Assembly: GCA_038144595.1 (NCBI GenBank)
Contig: JAYQOB010000005.1
Coordinates: 13,689-77,688 of the forward strand
From: Candidatus Poseidoniales archaeon
GTDB taxonomy: Archaea; Thermoplasmatota; Poseidoniia; Poseidoniales; Poseidoniaceae
DNA: 64,000 nucleotides
Direction of reading: 5' to 3'
A program made the position numbers and the translations under genes. Positions 10,881 to 16,945 of this stretch are shown piece by piece. Numbering within the stretch: position 1 is the first letter of the stretch; the number at the start of each line of letters is the position of its first letter. Below the pieces are notes generated by a model. That model saw only the letters and a program-made list of their open reading frames with translations. It was not told the DNA's origin and searched no databases.

Positions 10881-12092
10881 ATGGAGGCCGTGATGAGCCC
10901 TGCGCCACTCGCAGGAGAACACCACGACTGGCCACATCGCCTGAACACATTGTTGGACCAGCGGTCATGGTCGCCTGCGCTCAGTCCCATCGCTGCGAAG
11001 CTCGCAACTAACCAAACCCTTAGTGTCGAGGACGGGCTTGTCCTCTATCGGCACCCAGACCTCAACGAAGTGGGCGCGATGGCCAACATCGTCCGCCAAG
11101 CGAGGTTCGACTCCAAGGCCTTCTTCAATTCCAACGTCCACATCAATCAAACCAACATTTGCGTTCTCGCTTGCCGATTCTGTGCCTTCCGGCGCGGCCC
11201 GAAGGCCAAGGACGCCTACGCCATGTCCGTCGATGATTATCTGGCGGATTTGGCCACGTACGCTCACGCCGTGGACGAAGTCCATTCGGTCGGTGGCCTC
11301 CATCCTGAATGGGGGGTTGAACACTACGAATCGCTCTTTCAACGCGTGGCTGCTGAACACCCCCATGTCGCCATCAAGGCGTTGACGGCTGTTGAAATCA
11401 AACACTTGGGCCAACGCTCTTCCATTTCAACCAAAGAAGTGCTCAAGCGCCTCAAGGGCGCCGGGTTAACGTCCCTTCCCGGCGGCGGAGCCGAAATCCT
11501 TGACGATGAGGTGCGTGCAGTGATTTGCAACGGCAAGGAAAGTTCAGAGGAATACCTCCAAATCCACCGCGAAGCCCATGAGGTGGGCCTACCGTCGAAC
11601 TGCACCATGTTGTTCGGTACCATTGAAACCCTTAAGCAGCGCTTGCAGCACATGATTTCGCTTCGTGAACTTAACGCAGAAACCCAAGGGTTCCAATGCT
11701 TCGTCCCGTACCCGTTCTTGCCCGATGATACCCGCTTGCCCGAGGCTCAACTTGCCAGTGGTTCTGAAGTGCTTCGAACCATTGCTGTATCTCGCTTGAT
11801 GCTCAACAACATCCCGCACATCAAAGCGTACCGGATGAACATTGGGGACCACGTTGCGGAATTGGCCTTGCAGTTTGGTGCTGACGACATTGACGGCACG
11901 GTCCAGAAAGAGTCCATCATGCACCTTGCAGGGTCAACGGCACCGTTGGACCACGACCGTGCCAAACTGGCTCGCTTGATTCATGATGCTGGATGTGAAC
12001 CGGTTCAACGCAACACCACCTACTCCGAATTCAAGGCTTACGTGCCACCGCCGGTACAACCACGCCGAAGCCTCCGGATGGCGTCCGATTGA
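10881..12092 (+). CDS. mqnE: Aminofutalosine synthase (CofH-like radical SAM)
   Basis: NICVLACRFCAF CxxxCxxC motif, SLPGGGAEI, IPHIKAY, FGADDIDGT; adjacent to mqnA/mqnD. MqnC is not fully excluded. Confidence 0.8.
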   Translation: MEAVMSPAPLAGEHHDWPHRLNTLLDQRSWSPALSPIAAKLATNQTLSVEDGLVLYRHPDLNEVGAMANIVRQARFDSKAFFNSNVHINQTNICVLACRFCAFRRGPKAKDAYAMSVDDYLADLATYAHAVDEVHSVGGLHPEWGVEHYESLFQRVAAEHPHVAIKALTAVEIKHLGQRSSISTKEVLKRLKGAGLTSLPGGGAEILDDEVRAVICNGKESSEEYLQIHREAHEVGLPSNCTMLFGTIETLKQRLQHMISLRELNAETQGFQCFVPYPFLPDDTRLPEAQLASGSEVLRTIAVSRLMLNNIPHIKAYRMNIGDHVAELALQFGADDIDGTVQKESIMHLAGSTAPLDHDRAKLARLIHDAGCEPVQRNTTYSEFKAYVPPPVQPRRSLRMASD

Positions 12093-12095
12093 GGA

Positions 12096-12914
12096 ATGGT
12101 CATGGCAGCAACATGGACCTCGACGCTCGGTCGTGTGGCGTTCATCAACTGCGATCCGCTCTATCATGCGTTACCGAATGAGTGGAACGTCTTGGCTGCC
12201 CCGCCATCATGGCTGACCGGCCATGTTCTCCGGCGAGATTGCATCTTGGCACCCATTCCAGCAGCAGATTATGCCAAACATCAGGACGAACTCGTCCTGC
12301 TTCCCGATATTGGCATAGGAAGCCAAGGTGAAGTTGGCAGCGTGCTGCTTTTCGGCGCCGTACCCATCGAAGCCATGAAAACCATTGCGCTGCCCACCGA
12401 TTCCGCGACATCGGTGGCGCTCCTCAAACACCTTTTGCTCAAGCGGGGCCACACCATGTCGTATGTTTCAACGGGCCCAGACTACGAGTCGATGATGGCC
12501 ATGGCCGACGGGGCGCTGCTCATCGGCGACCGAGCGCTCGAGGCGGCACGAGAATTCCCCGAGATGGTTCAACTTGACCTCGGCGAGGCGTGGATGGAAG
12601 ACGAGGGTTTGCCGATGATCTTTGGCGTGTTCGTCGCCCGAGCCGACACGCCGCCAGCGCTCGTTCGTCAGGCGCATGCTGTTCTTCTTGCTAACCTCGT
12701 TCAATTCGAAGACAACCCCAGCAAGCGGGAACATGTGATTGCGTGGTCCATGGAAAAATCAGGGTTGACGCATGATCGCCTCGACCGCTACTATGGTGAG
12801 GTGTTCAACCGTCTCAACCAGCACCATCTCGACGGTTTGTTCAGGTTTCTTTCCGAAGCATGTGGGATGGCTGAACCACCTCGGTTTGCGTGGTCCGCTC
12901 ATGGTGTTGTATGA
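12096..12914 (+). CDS. mqnA: Chorismate dehydratase (futalosine pathway)
   Basis: GRVAFINCDPL, GEVGSVLLF, SATSVALL, LLIGDRAL, DLGEAW...LPMIFGVF. Confidence 0.88.
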   Translation: MVMAATWTSTLGRVAFINCDPLYHALPNEWNVLAAPPSWLTGHVLRRDCILAPIPAADYAKHQDELVLLPDIGIGSQGEVGSVLLFGAVPIEAMKTIALPTDSATSVALLKHLLLKRGHTMSYVSTGPDYESMMAMADGALLIGDRALEAAREFPEMVQLDLGEAWMEDEGLPMIFGVFVARADTPPALVRQAHAVLLANLVQFEDNPSKREHVIAWSMEKSGLTHDRLDRYYGEVFNRLNQHHLDGLFRFLSEACGMAEPPRFAWSAHGVV

Positions 12915-12959
12915 AATTTCAAACGGATGGTTCTTGAAGGGCACACAGGTGGGAAAATC

Positions 12960-13838
12960 ATGGTTGAACTTCCATTGGACGAAGACGGCAACAAAATCGT
13001 GCGCATTGGCCACAGCCCGGACCCCGATGACGCCTTCATGTTTCATGCCATGACCACCAATGCGTTCCCGACGCCAGGCTACAACTTCGTGCACGAACTT
13101 CAGGACATTGAAACGCTGAATCACCGTGCGATGAACCAGGACCTCGAAGTTTCTGCCGTCTCCATTCACGCCTACCCCGACATTGCAGACCACTATGCGC
13201 TCATGAACTGCGGCGCTTCGATGGGCGAAGGCTACGGCCCCATGATCGTCTGCAAGGAAGGCATCTCAGAGGATGAAGCCCGAAGCAACGTCATCGCCGT
13301 TCCCGGTCTGAAAACCAGTGCCTACCTCGGGCTGAGACTTGCGTGGGGCGACTGTGAAGTCGCCGTGGTTCCGTTTGATGAAATCATACCTCGTATTCTT
13401 GATGGTACCTACCTCAGCGGCCTCATCATCCACGAAGGTCAACTCACCTACGTTGACCACGACCTGAATGTCCTCATCGACCTCGGCAAGTGGTGGAATG
13501 CTCGAACGAACAACTGGCCGATGCCACTGGGCGGAAACGTCGTCCGCCGAGACCTCGGGGAAGCGGTGATGCAGGACATCACCAAATACACCAAAATGAG
13601 CATCGAGTATGCGCTCGCTTCACCCGATGAAGCCCTCGAATTCGCCAAAGCATGGGGCCGTGGAATCGATGACGATACCAACCGTGAGTTCGTTGGCATG
13701 TACGTCAACGACCGAACCATCGATTACAAGGAGGAAGGTCGAGCATCCATCCGTCAGTTCATCTCCGAGGGACAATCTATTGGCCTCATTCGGAATGATT
13801 TCGATACCGACGCCATGCGTTTTATCGGAGAACCCTGA
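12960..13838 (+). CDS. mqnD: 1,4-dihydroxy-6-naphthoate synthase
   Basis: GHSPDPDDAFMF, DIETLN, GASMGEGYGP, IIHEGQLTY, PLGGN, MYVN. Confidence 0.92.
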   Translation: MVELPLDEDGNKIVRIGHSPDPDDAFMFHAMTTNAFPTPGYNFVHELQDIETLNHRAMNQDLEVSAVSIHAYPDIADHYALMNCGASMGEGYGPMIVCKEGISEDEARSNVIAVPGLKTSAYLGLRLAWGDCEVAVVPFDEIIPRILDGTYLSGLIIHEGQLTYVDHDLNVLIDLGKWWNARTNNWPMPLGGNVVRRDLGEAVMQDITKYTKMSIEYALASPDEALEFAKAWGRGIDDDTNREFVGMYVNDRTIDYKEEGRASIRQFISEGQSIGLIRNDFDTDAMRFIGEP

Positions 13839-13847
13839 GGGCTGTTC

Positions 13848-14336
13848 ATGAACGCCGAGGGTCGTATTCCGAAGGTCAGCCAGTACGGGTCTGTCGACCC
13901 TGCACCACCTTCGCAAACGACCGTGGTCGCTGAACTCACAGGACGTTTGTGCGACGAATCCCTGCCGATGTTTCAACGGATGAGGGCCGTCTTTTCCTTG
14001 AGGAACCAGCGGACCGATGCTGCTTGCCTTGCGTTGTGCCAAGGCTTCAGCAGTGAAAGCGCGCTCCTCCGTCATGAAATCGCCTATGTCCTCGGTCAGA
14101 TGCAAAACACCGTAGCGCTCCCTACCCTCATCGAGCGACTTGAGGATGCAAACGAACACGTCATGGTTCGTCATGAAGCCGCTGAGGCGATGGGTGCCAT
14201 TGGCGACAGGTCAGTGATTCCATCGCTTGAGAAATTCAGCCAAGACCCCCTCCCCGAGGTGGCTGAATCGTGCATTGTCGCCCTCGACCTCCTCGCATGG
14301 GTCGACGGCGCTGAATTCGACGAGACCGAATGCTGA
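13848..14336 (+). CDS. Half-size deoxyhypusine hydroxylase (DOHH)-like HEAT-repeat protein
   Basis: SVDPAPP, RMRAVFSLRN, SALLRHEIAYVLGQMQ, MVRHEAAEAMGAIG, EVAESCIVAL; corresponds to one DOHH domain with two HE motifs (H76/E77, H109/E110). Confidence 0.85.
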   Translation: MNAEGRIPKVSQYGSVDPAPPSQTTVVAELTGRLCDESLPMFQRMRAVFSLRNQRTDAACLALCQGFSSESALLRHEIAYVLGQMQNTVALPTLIERLEDANEHVMVRHEAAEAMGAIGDRSVIPSLEKFSQDPLPEVAESCIVALDLLAWVDGAEFDETEC

Positions 14337-14389: not shown

Positions 14390-14599
14390 ATGCCCCACGA
14401 TCACATCCAACTGGCCCAAGCTCCCAACGGCGAACTTGGACCTCGGTGCCATAATTGCGGCATGCGCTTGACGTTTGGAAACGCGATGGTGGTGGACAAG
14501 TTCTACATGTGCTGGGAGCACTATGTGGAAGCCACGGGGGCAGACACAGCCACGGAAATCTCGGGTGCCGATGAGCGCTTCTGGATGAAGCAAGAATGA
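14390..14599 (+). CDS. Small putative Zn-binding protein (69 aa)
   Basis: C-x2-C-x17-C-x2-H (CHNC...CWEH); purine-rich AGGAAGGA upstream of the ATG. Confidence 0.7.
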   Translation: MPHDHIQLAQAPNGELGPRCHNCGMRLTFGNAMVVDKFYMCWEHYVEATGADTATEISGADERFWMKQE

Positions 14600-14650: not shown

Positions 14651-15850
14651 ATGGCAGCGGGCTGGGCGAGATTTGCGCATCGGTTTGGTCAGTATTACCA
14701 ACACGCACCGCTTTGGTCCCCACCTCGCATCAAAACCCGGGAATGGATGTTCATCCCCTTTGGTGGTGCACCGCCTCTCCGCCACAAATCGTTCTCATCG
14801 GTTTCGCAGGTGCAATCCTTCCTCTCACAGCGCGCCATGCATTCATGCTTCTATTCCACAGCGTATTGGCGCCGACCGTATGAGTTGAAGATGGCTGAGA
14901 AACTGTGGCAAGGCGCAGACTTGATTTTCGATTTGGATGGCGACCACCTGCCAGGTGTCACCGATCGTGATTTCCCCGGCATGTTGGCCGTGATTCAAGA
15001 CCAAGCATGGTCCCTTTGGAACGACTTTCTCGAGCCAGAATTCGGTTTCAAGGAGGACCACCTCCAAATCACCTTCTCCGGACACCGAGGATTTCACTTG
15101 CACTACAGGGACCCTGCGCTGTTCCACCTGGATTCGGAAGCCCGACGGGAACTGGTTTCGCACATCAGGGGCGAAGGTGTTGACGTTCAAGGAGGCCTGG
15201 CTCGCTATCATGACCAGCAGGCAAAGGGTTGGACGCAGCGCATTCGGGATGGGATGGACGCCATGATTGACACACTTCGTGAGATTCACCGTGGTGCAGA
15301 CGGCAGTGCTTCAGCGCTGCGACGGTTGGAATCGGAACTCCAAGCCATGCAAGATCGAGAAGGAACCACCTCGCAGCGTTCTGCTGCAGCCATCCGCCGC
15401 CTTGCAGAATTGATGGACCACGATCAACGAGTCGCTCGATTAAAGGACGGAAAGTTCGAAATTCTTGGGAACTACCAAGCGCTCTTTTTGAATCTCCTCA
15501 AGGCCGATGCTTCGGTTGTTCTGGGTTCTGCTGGGGAAACAGACGAAGTGGTCACCATTGACGTCCGACGACAAATACGATGGCCGACGTCGTTGCACGG
15601 CAAATCCGGAATGCGTGTCAGCGAATTCCCGCTCAGTCGACTGGACCCCGATGGACACAATCCGTACAACCCGCTCAACGAGGCTTTCGTTTTGGGTCTT
15701 GACCAAACCGCTGAGGTCGAATGGACCGTGGACGATGCTATCGCGCAGTTTGGTGATCGCCGATTGGAAAGTACCATCGGCGAGCGAATTCAAGTCCATG
15801 AATCGGGTGCTACCTTCCTTGTTCTCAAAGGATGGGCACAGTTGGTTTGA
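14651..15850 (+). CDS. priS: DNA primase catalytic (small) subunit
   Basis: REWMF, FYSTAYW, ADLIFDLDGD, FSGHRGFHLH, DEVVTIDVRRQIRWPTSLHGKSG. Confidence 0.93.
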   Translation: MAAGWARFAHRFGQYYQHAPLWSPPRIKTREWMFIPFGGAPPLRHKSFSSVSQVQSFLSQRAMHSCFYSTAYWRRPYELKMAEKLWQGADLIFDLDGDHLPGVTDRDFPGMLAVIQDQAWSLWNDFLEPEFGFKEDHLQITFSGHRGFHLHYRDPALFHLDSEARRELVSHIRGEGVDVQGGLARYHDQQAKGWTQRIRDGMDAMIDTLREIHRGADGSASALRRLESELQAMQDREGTTSQRSAAAIRRLAELMDHDQRVARLKDGKFEILGNYQALFLNLLKADASVVLGSAGETDEVVTIDVRRQIRWPTSLHGKSGMRVSEFPLSRLDPDGHNPYNPLNEAFVLGLDQTAEVEWTVDDAIAQFGDRRLESTIGERIQVHESGATFLVLKGWAQLV

Positions 15851-15946
15851 ATCGCAGTGCCGGCCCAAGAGAACCGTTCAATTTATTGGACGACGTGCGG
15901 TAAGGTTCAAGGGTGGTTTCCCATCCCTTGGGACGAGGTGAGTCCA

Positions 15947-16945
15947 GTGGGTCTGCGCAGAGGGAAGAAATCCAAGAAGTCGGATGCGTCCCTGCCCATG
16001 CCCGATTTGCCTCCACCCGCAGGTCTTCCTGCACCCCTTCCCCTGCCTGGTGCTGCTCCGCTTCCGCCGTTGCCTGGGGTCCCTTCACCCGGTGAGGCTA
16101 CCGTTCCCGCCCCGTTGCCTGTTCCTTTGCCCGCACCAGCGCCACAGCCTGCTACCCTCGCCACTCCAGTTCCTCTTCCTGCGCCCGTCAATGATCCTGA
16201 AACCACGCTGTCAGGCATTGCCAAAGACAGTGGATACAACGAATTGTGGGCCAAGCGTTCGGAAAAACCATTGCAACAGATTTACGGCCACATCGACCGA
16301 ATCAGCAACAAAGAAGCTGGTTCTCTCTTGGACCGATACGCTGACCGCTTCGGGCACTCCCTTGACCGTGAAATCATCGTCATGAGGAAGGCCGCCATGG
16401 AAGAAAAGGTGGCCGAAATTCGCGATGCACCCACCGTTGAACTCATCGATGATGAACCGGCCGAACCTGTCAGCGAGTTACAACAAGTCGAAGATGAACT
16501 TCGAGCATTGAAGCCGCTGTACCAAGAGGCCAAGGCATTGGGTGACAAAGAAACCCTCGCCGAACTCACCCCAACCCTCCAAGCGCTCATGGCTCGGAGA
16601 AAAGCGTTGAAGGGTGGAAGCGCCCCTTCCGCATCAACACAAGTCGCTGAGACAGCAGAGGACGATGATGGTCTGTTTGCCCAATTTGTCACAATCGTTG
16701 ACGCCTTGCTGGGTGACCACCTTCCCGAATCCATCGTCAATGACTTCATCGCCAGCGCAGATTTCGCCATCTATCAGGAAGTTGCACAATCGCCGAACAC
16801 GGCCGACGAAGACACACGCGCCGCATACTATCGGATGGTGGACGATCAACTTGGCAACATGTCTCCCGAATCCATTTCTGCATTTGTTGAGTCGGATGAC
16901 TTTGCAATCTACCAAACAATCGGCGAACGCTACAAGGATGAGTGA
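15947..16945 (+). CDS. Hypothetical protein with basic N-terminus, Pro-rich tract and helical/coiled C-terminal part
   Basis: Long ORF; GTG start after SD-like GAGGTGA; PLPxP repeats. Confidence 0.7.
   Translation: MGLRRGKKSKKSDASLPMPDLPPPAGLPAPLPLPGAAPLPPLPGVPSPGEATVPAPLPVPLPAPAPQPATLATPVPLPAPVNDPETTLSGIAKDSGYNELWAKRSEKPLQQIYGHIDRISNKEAGSLLDRYADRFGHSLDREIIVMRKAAMEEKVAEIRDAPTVELIDDEPAEPVSELQQVEDELRALKPLYQEAKALGDKETLAELTPTLQALMARRKALKGGSAPSASTQVAETAEDDDGLFAQFVTIVDALLGDHLPESIVNDFIASADFAIYQEVAQSPNTADEDTRAAYYRMVDDQLGNMSPESISAFVESDDFAIYQTIGERYKDE

Follow-up and report, generated by a model that had tools for sequence, protein, structure and literature searches.

Whether any archaeon hydroxylates deoxyhypusine with an enzyme of the deoxyhypusine hydroxylase (DOHH, EC 1.14.99.29) type is the question raised by a short gene of a Candidatus Poseidoniales archaeon. 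DOHH is the iron enzyme with which eukaryotes complete the hypusine modification of translation factor 5A. The gene lies in a stretch of 64,000 nucleotides (nt), hereafter the window (assembly GCA_038144595.1, contig JAYQOB010000005.1, positions 13,689 to 77,688); gene coordinates below are window positions unless another contig of the genome (C7 or C8) is named. It is an open reading frame (ORF) at 13848..14336 on the + strand, starting with ATG and, stop codon included, encoding a 162-aa half-size DOHH homologue with four HEAT repeats. It is proposed, with a probability that we put at about 0.68, that this protein hydroxylates the deoxyhypusine of aIF5A as a diiron enzyme made of two identical chains. 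The proposal is based on specific homology to DOHH, residue conservation, single copy number, the presence of both deoxyhypusine synthase (DHS) and aIF5A, and restriction of the family to lineages with cytochrome oxidase.

An earlier reading of the window, made from the sequence alone (the sequence-only reading), held that no archaeal DOHH orthologue had been assigned. This agrees with passages of a 2016 paper (PMC5178350), a 2018 paper (PMC6105217) and a 2021 review (PMC8153317), in which archaea are said to have the first enzyme of the pathway, DHS, and no orthologue of the second, DOHH, is reported from them; at the level of database labels it no longer holds, the JGI automatic annotation naming relatives of the window protein 'deoxyhypusine monooxygenase'. 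That label shows that annotation pipelines already pick up the half-size family. A passage of a 2026 review of proline translation states that some archaea rely on deoxyhypusine (PMC12856214). [quoted passage not shown] The tables of KO (KEGG orthology) numbers in MGII genome papers may already list the gene under K06072, which we take to be the KO number concerned.

A half-size homologue of deoxyhypusine hydroxylase

In a phmmer search of all PDB chains the best match to the window protein was human DOHH (4d4z_A, E 3.7e-67), with residues 32-153 of the query on the human N half (106 bits) and residues 4-155 on the linker and C half (124 bits); the next match, a designed HEAT protein, followed at E 2.8e-29. 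The AlphaFold2 monomer model, built with 50 relatives in the alignment, has a mean predicted local distance difference test score (pLDDT) of 91 and eight helices, and therefore four HEAT hairpins. Foldseek with this model again places 4d4z at the top of the PDB (TM-score of the query, TMq, 0.86-0.87; root-mean-square deviation 1.6-1.7 Å; 46-47% identity), all other HEAT proteins reaching a TMq of at most 0.68. The lead of DOHH over the other solved HEAT proteins is thus 38 orders of magnitude in E-value and 0.18 in TM-score. Named eukaryotic DOHHs of ~300 aa, collected in a longer-length protein search, are 42-56% identical to the window protein. From these comparisons we identify the window protein as a specific DOHH homologue rather than a generic HEAT protein, with a likeness to DOHH far beyond chance.

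Pfam recognizes only generic families in the window protein (HEAT_2, HEAT_PBS, HEAT and HEAT_EZ, with PF03130, HEAT_PBS, at 3.9e-15), and its relatives are labelled 'HEAT repeat domain-containing protein' of Poseidoniales, Poseidonia or Thermoplasmatota at NCBI. Both facts favour the alternative of a catalytically inert HEAT scaffold, or of a PBS-lyase-like protein that merely resembles DOHH. We consider this highly improbable, given the lead of DOHH in sequence and fold, the invariance of the His-Glu motifs and their flanking residues described below, and the scores of the lyase models of NCBIfam, which fall far short of their equivalog cut-offs (NblB 23.4 bits against 300, CpcE 23.0 against 330, CpeY 20.4 against 600). 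The grouping with DOHH rather than with generic HEAT or PBS-lyase proteins, on which the sequence-only reading depended, was thus borne out. PBS-lyase HEAT-like proteins (CpcE/CpcF, NblB, CpeY) and proteins of the E. coli YibA type have short HEAT_PBS repeats and a prokaryotic host in common with the window protein, but match it in phmmer only at 8e-06 (CpcE, 5n3u) and 0.03 (YibA, 1oyz), compared with 3.7e-67 for DOHH; to our knowledge the phycobilin lyases have no conserved His-Glu pairs at a 33-residue spacing. The next-best matches in sequence and fold, designed alphaRep proteins and the archaeal HEAT protein MTH187 (1te4), share a HEAT_2 architecture of four to six repeats, but they are consensus-designed binders or proteins of unknown function without a metal site, at 26-31% identity and TMq 0.52-0.68.

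The eukaryotic enzymes (human 4D4Z/4D50, yeast Lia1, Drosophila nero) have the same HEAT-hairpin fold. Each of their halves, like the window protein, carries two His-Glu motifs 33 residues apart and a Gly-Gln pair 7 residues past the first His, and an MVRHE box and an SVDPAPP segment are also held in common. Unlike the window protein, with its four repeats in 162 aa, the eukaryotic enzyme has eight HEAT repeats in one chain of ~300 aa, arranged as a pseudo-symmetric dyad; its full diiron site lies in one chain, whereas the window protein would need two; and its SVDPAPP segment is an inter-domain linker, whereas that of the window protein forms a free N-terminal arm. The window gene further differs in its archaeal host, in having an mqnD-like gene upstream and in a tree position outside the clans of both eukaryotic halves.

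Conservation of the active site

The window protein contains SVDPAPP (residues 15-21), RMRAVFSLRN (44-53), SALLRHEIAYVLGQMQ (71-86), MVRHEAAEAMGAIG (106-119) and EVAESC (137-142), and its two His-Glu motifs, H76-E77 and H109-E110, are 33 residues apart. The ORF, the five motif strings and the spacing, as given in the sequence-only reading, were all recovered from the ORF list and the translation. In the phmmer alignment H76-E77 (14073..14078, +) falls on the first His-Glu of each human half (H56/E57 and H207/E208), and H109-E110 (14172..14177, +), inside MVRHE, on the second (H89/E90 and H240/E241), where human numbers are chain indices minus a 5-residue offset that was itself inferred. Each chain therefore holds two of the four His-Glu motifs of DOHH. 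G83-Q84 (14094..14099, +) starts 7 residues past H76, just as human G214 stands 7 past H207 and another human glycine 7 past H56. The arm motif SVDPAPP (13890..13910, +) aligns with the human SVDPAPP between the two halves, and the same motif appears in the consensus of 26 eukaryotic C halves.

According to passages of a review from the group that cloned DOHH, the anchors of the human diiron centre are H56, H89, E90, H207, H240 and E241, and the deoxyhypusine side chain is bound by E57, E90, E208, E241, G214 and an N-half glycine printed as G65 (PMC9117371). The equivalents of these side-chain binders in the window protein, mapped through the phmmer alignment to the residues named in those passages, are E77, E110 and G83, all of them invariant. 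In a set of 50 archaeal sequences, 39-95% identical to the window protein, the residues D17, P18, M41, R44, F49, L51, R52, S71, L73, H76, E77, A79, G83, Q84, L94, M106, V107, R108, H109, E110, E113, G116, L127 and S141 are invariant (50/50), and A19 and P20 are at least 90% conserved. By this alignment, none of the catalytic or substrate-side positions that the literature names varies among the 50 archaeal relatives, and the set belonging to one half is complete. The invariance of the His-Glu motifs and their flanks in a family that has diverged to 39% identity is a sign of selection on an active site and not on a repeat scaffold.

A predicted symmetric homodimer

With four repeats per chain and a single gene copy, a homodimer is the only route to the eight repeats of DOHH. 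A heterodimer of paralogues is unlikely because a search of the window's own genome (2.0 Mb, 73% complete) gave a single copy, even at E up to 10, and all but three of the positive genomes described below hold one match. A split gene was likewise ruled out: besides the single match, there is no room upstream for a lost N-terminal half, as the sequence-only reading had pointed out, the mqnD-like gene ending with TGA at 13836-13838 and the DOHH ATG following at 13848 after a spacer of 9 nt.

Complexes of two copies of the window protein and 2 Fe were predicted from a 50-row alignment in three runs, with three controls. The homodimer reached ipSAE values of 0.92, 0.94 and 0.92, against 0.00 for each control, with a partner pLDDT of at least 93 and at least 73% of contacts common to the runs. 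When the predictor was calibrated, 20 of 30 solved homo-pairs attained its mark, compared with 1 of 23 proteins whose solved structures are single chains. The modelled interface is symmetric and involves residues 8-21, 40-53, 71-73, 83-86, 104-106, 109, 113, 116-117 and 136-151; the SVDPAPP arm (8-21) touches residues 144-148 and 117 of the partner, and M106-M106 and M106-H109 contacts cross the two-fold axis. Such an interface would look like a copy of the eukaryotic pseudo-dyad. The homodimerisation put forward in the sequence-only reading agrees with this predicted complex, which has H109 and M106 on the two-fold interface.

Distribution of the family in archaea

A near-length protein search returned 2487 relatives, the top ones being proteins of 158-177 aa and a few shorter fragments, from marine metagenomes. 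A motif scan of 185,579 prokaryotic species, each represented by a single genome, confirmed 397 loci, and the best 80 of the 397 all come from Poseidonia, Poseidoniaceae or Poseidoniales bins or from bins under older names for them. We assign the source organism of the window to Poseidonia (Marine Group II a). One locus labelled Verrucomicrobiales (L086, NZEQ01000006.1) has the gene order mqnC-mqnA-mqnD-DOHH-small ORF-priS with 75-89% protein identity to the window, and is almost certainly an archaeal contig mis-binned into a bacterial metagenome-assembled genome.

All genomes scanned one by one belong to a single phylum, Thermoplasmatota, where the half-size family was found in 109 of 401 sampled genomes (match E <=1e-10). 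With f numbers as family labels and g numbers as genus labels in this sample, and L and G numbers denoting loci and genomes, the positive genomes are distributed as follows: f1 52/58, f2 22/36, f28 18/19, f9 7/9, f25 3/3, f27 2/6 and f17 1/1, with one positive genome in each of three further families. There was no match in f5 (0/48), f15 (0/53), f18 (0/24), f4 (0/14) and f3 (0/10), among other families of the scan. One match was found in 106 of the 109 positive genomes and two in the remaining 3, every match spanning the query once. The family thus spans at least 10 Thermoplasmatota families and has diverged to ~40% identity. A second near-length search with a divergent member as query gave, among the matches listed, half-size proteins with archaeal names only, labelled Thermoplasmatota, 'Euryarchaeota', 'Methanobacteriota' and, in one case, 'Halobacteriales', the contig of which is also in the phylum scan. 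The top 150 of a protein-representative search, which provided the sequences for the trees below, were mostly two-domain eukaryotic proteins and long multi-repeat proteins.

Reading the loci of 50 relatives frame by frame gave plausible starts 10-25 residues before the (S/T)VDPAP motif and proteins of 154-176 aa. The domain stands alone in 49 of the 50, the exception being L051, where it is fused; together with the one domain per match of the phylum scan, this upholds the stand-alone half-size domain of the sequence-only reading. Long open frames of 463, 373, 317, 574, 666, 296 and 320 aa occur at some relatives; six of them were rejected as GC-rich read-through, because they have no recognisable upstream domain and contain an internal start near the DOHH domain.

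Pathway partners and oxygen

Both partners that a DOHH would require, DHS and aIF5A, are encoded in the same genome. DHS is found at C8:62673-63584 (PF01916, 299.9 bits), and aIF5A at C7:65272-65655 (TIGR00037, 98.7 bits, above the cut-off). The loop of this aIF5A reads SKSKPGKHGSAK and contains the lysine of KPGKHG, which we take to be the archaeal counterpart of GKHG, the hypusination site in eukaryotes. PF01287, the eIF-5a C-terminal domain, found no aIF5A in this genome; its control matched only 3 control genomes. A second DHS-like gene at C8:153690-154596 (L003/L004) is split over two frames, with 67 and 50 bits to PF01916; a frameshift, an error in the assembly or decay into a pseudogene could account for this. 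An ORF just upstream of it may be AdoMet-decarboxylase-like, by the look of its sequence.

DOHH needs O2, and for this reason the distribution of the half-size gene was compared with that of cytochrome oxidase subunit I (COX1, PF00115) in a 401-genome sample of the phylum with the same labels. No half-size gene was found in the 168 genomes that make up the 18 listed families lacking a COX1 match. All families that carry it have COX1 (f1 57/58, f2 33/36, f9 8/9, f17 1/1, f25 3/3, f27 6/6 and f28 17/19). Because related genomes are not independent, this pattern serves as a consistency check and not as a statistical test.

Genomic context and a possible other substrate

The mqnD-like gene directly upstream (12927..13838, +) matches Pfam VitK2_biosynth at 2e-63, as is expected for MqnA/MqnD-type proteins, and is preceded by another MqnA/MqnD-type gene with a VitK2_biosynth match (12096..12914, +). 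Both belong to a futalosine-pathway cluster at 10881-13838 (+) that begins with a radical-SAM MqnC/MqnE-like gene, whose product has a CofH/MqnC C-terminal region in Pfam, and continues with the MqnA-like and MqnD-like genes; its internal gaps are only 3 and 12 nt, and it leads straight into the DOHH gene. A GAGGG at 13837..13841 (+), 6 nt before the ATG and overlapping the mqnD stop codon, is a possible ribosome-binding site. The mqnD-like and DOHH genes probably share an operon. In two studies, contigs of metatranscriptome libraries cover parts of the DOHH ORF at 90-99% identity and bridge the mqnD-DOHH junction; since such contigs show neither level nor strand, may stem from carried-over DNA, and are uninformative for the uncovered parts, they are a weak hint of transcription and of co-transcription with mqnD.

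This neighbourhood suggests an alternative, namely that the protein descends from DOHH and is a homodimeric diiron oxygenase, but with another substrate, which in Poseidoniales might belong to a step linked to menaquinone metabolism (the futalosine pathway) or be a free polyamine-like amine. All 80 Poseidoniaceae loci have mqnD directly upstream, as have both of the Thalassarchaeaceae-type loci (the sister family) that were read, although mqnA and mqnC are on the other strand in the latter. In one sister-family genome (L051, G092:C2, about 117100-123600), MqnD and half-DOHH share one uninterrupted 463-aa frame, which is either a natural fusion or the result of a stop codon lost in a metagenome bin. 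The RNA-library contigs across the junction and the confinement of the gene to oxidase-bearing lineages, like quinone-based respiration, also agree with this alternative. The association with mqnD is nevertheless restricted to Poseidoniales: blastp found no mqn gene in any of 18 loci outside the order, where the neighbours are unrelated, namely Peptidase_M28 upstream in three f28 loci, with PurH downstream in two of the three, and PIN, Hsp20 or ORFs without a Pfam match in the others. Outside Poseidoniales 11 of 19 neighbouring ORFs have no Pfam match, the sole recurrent partners being Peptidase_M28 and PurH, both within a single family. Just one of the 50 loci, from a metagenome bin, shows the fusion; E77 and G83, which match human binders of the deoxyhypusine chain, are invariant; and an identity of ~47% to an enzyme that is said to act on a single substrate speaks for that substrate here as well. 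Moreover, we know of no O2-dependent hydroxylation in the futalosine route. Another substrate is, on balance, improbable.

Downstream of the DOHH gene, a small ORF encodes 69 aa from the M at 14390 (14390..14599, +), its longest frame starting at 14330 and overlapping the DOHH stop. It has no Pfam match, and its CHNCG and CWEH motifs (CxxC plus C..H) possibly form a zinc-binding module. The small ORF is present in 79 of 80 Poseidoniaceae loci, and all 5 examined genomes without the DOHH gene still have it between mqnD and priS, so it is probably independent of that gene. The archaeal DNA primase small subunit gene priS (14651..15850, +; DNA_primase_S 1.4e-17), found in 78 of the 80 loci, forms the conserved downstream boundary of the locus. 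It is followed by an ORF of 362 aa (15857-16942, +) with a low-complexity N-terminal part rich in proline, alanine and leucine; this ORF has no significant Pfam match and is 34-75% identical in three related loci (L051, L054 and L086).

Proposed mechanism

We propose that the window protein is a homodimeric DOHH in which two identical four-HEAT-repeat chains most likely pack round a two-fold axis, in the way the eukaryotic N and C halves pack round their pseudo-two-fold. H76, H109 and E110 of each chain would together build a 4-His/2-Glu diiron centre across the dimer, while the deoxyhypusine side chain would lie in a pocket lined by E77 and G83 of each chain. The SVDPAPP-containing N-terminal arm (8-21) would hold on to the other chain, and this would explain why a 'linker' motif is conserved though nothing is linked. 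DHS would make deoxyhypusine on the KPGKHG lysine of aIF5A, and the dimer, with O2, would convert it to hypusine.

Several points weigh against this proposal. Dimerisation, iron binding, substrate and reaction are all inferred. The high ipSAE may be the predictor's memory of the intramolecular packing in 4D4Z, and the predictor's output consists of scores and contacts rather than coordinates, the convergence of four His and two Glu being a postulate. The conserved pairing with mqnD and the single in-frame fusion could point to a different substrate. Early amino-acid analyses, as cited in a passage of PMC5178350, found mostly deoxyhypusine in Euryarchaeota, including Thermoplasmatales, and hypusine in Crenarchaea; the lineages that carry half-DOHH are uncultured ones, outside these data. 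The half-size family is unreported in Sulfolobales, where it was not searched for, and the hypusine of Sulfolobus and other Crenarchaea is not explained by it. Some oxidase-bearing families have no half-DOHH (f3 0/10, f21 0/9, f22 0/5). Finally, in five Poseidoniaceae genomes of genus g2 (G201, G145, G132, G157 and G237; loci L135-L139) the order is mqnD, small ORF, priS, with the DOHH gene cleanly gone and a gap of ~100-300 nt between mqnD and the small ORF, which looks like gene loss in one Poseidoniaceae lineage. This clean absence means that half-DOHH is dispensable; yeast LIA1 is likewise dispensable, according to a passage of a review (PMC8153317).

Relation to the two halves of the eukaryotic enzyme

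To place the archaeal proteins relative to the two eukaryotic halves, 95 full-length eukaryotic proteins were split into N and C halves with a hidden Markov model of the archaeal family, and 27 archaeal sequences were added; all trees are unrooted, since the repeats of generic HEAT proteins diverge too far, and are too subject to long-branch artefacts, to serve as outgroups. In a FastTree analysis of 217 rows the N halves form one clan (support 98) and the C halves another (97), with the archaeal rows between them. The same two clans were obtained with IQ-TREE (LG+C20+F+G4, posterior mean site frequencies, PMSF) from 79 rows, made up of the halves of 26 eukaryotes with short branches or known names and the 27 archaeal rows, 69 eukaryotes having been dropped; the N clan (100/99) and the C clan (100/95) each exclude all archaeal rows. 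Lying outside both clans, the archaeal proteins did not arise by recent transfer from a crown eukaryote. None of the 200 bootstrap trees united the archaeal rows in one clan: a marine subgroup (Poseidoniales and f28) adjoins the N stem, whereas the other Thermoplasmatota form the sister group of C (99/89). A quick tree from the 134 columns common to the three groups gave 99 for N, 93 for C and 92 for C with the second archaeal subgroup. The approximately unbiased (AU) test did not reject a tree with all archaea together, equivalent to N and C as sisters (delta lnL 6.8, p 0.385).

In the same 134 columns, the identity of the marine archaeal group is 44.4% to the N halves and 46.5% to the C halves, compared with 38.8% between N and C halves and 39.2% between those of the same protein. 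The consensus sequences form a mosaic, the marine group having GAIGD and VAES/TC in common with N and the SVDPAPP arm with C. By these measures the archaeal family looks intermediate between the halves and closer to each of them than they are to each other, which fits a pre-fusion state, resembling a homodimeric ancestor. The sequence-only reading had suggested a pre-duplication form of the eukaryotic enzyme; the trees are compatible with it, and, being unrooted and with an AU p of 0.385, do not demonstrate it. Taken at face value, the best trees group C with one archaeal subgroup and attach N elsewhere on the archaeal backbone, so that a fusion of two already diverged half-genes could replace a tandem duplication in the eukaryotic stem.

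The opposite direction was also considered, namely that the archaeal family descends from the C half and linker of an already fused DOHH, which Thermoplasmatota would have received from a stem or early eukaryote and then truncated; its members may still be homodimeric DOHHs. Several observations agree with such a transfer: the SVDPAPP segment is common to the archaeal proteins and the C halves only, scores are slightly higher to C than to N (124 against 106 bits; 46.5% against 44.4% over the 134 columns), and the C clan has one of the archaeal subgroups as its sister (99/89; 92). In addition, the named half-size relatives are all archaea, mostly Poseidoniales and Thermoplasmatota, apart from one Halobacteriales label and one mis-binned bacterial label, and the one phylum to which all the scanned genomes belong differs from that commonly regarded as the neighbour of eukaryotes. 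The clans of 26 N and 26 C halves that exclude the archaeal rows leave, on the other hand, no possible donor among crown eukaryotes; the archaea-N identity of 44.4%, higher than the 38.8% between C and N, is unexpected if the family branched off C after the halves had diverged; and the spread over at least 10 families of the phylum, with divergence to ~40% identity, also speaks against a transfer, which we regard as rather unlikely. An archaeal origin is put forward tentatively, at less than even odds: the half-size proteins would either preserve the ancestral homodimeric DOHH, or the eukaryotic halves would have been fused from two diverged half-genes of the archaeal type, with full hypusination being archaeal and linked to oxygen.

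Implications

A half-size DOHH homologue that is widespread in Marine Group II and in other oxidase-bearing Thermoplasmatota runs counter to what has repeatedly been stated in the field, and opens three questions to testing. The first is whether some archaea carry out a DOHH-type hydroxylation of deoxyhypusine. The second is whether a diiron site can be built across a true homodimer of four-HEAT-repeat chains, which would offer a minimal symmetric model of DOHH, an enzyme with an unusually stable peroxo intermediate. The third is the origin of the internally duplicated eukaryotic DOHH. If the proposed history is true, full hypusination would be of archaeal origin and tied to oxygen, and among the most abundant archaea of the ocean there would be some that carry hypusinated aIF5A.

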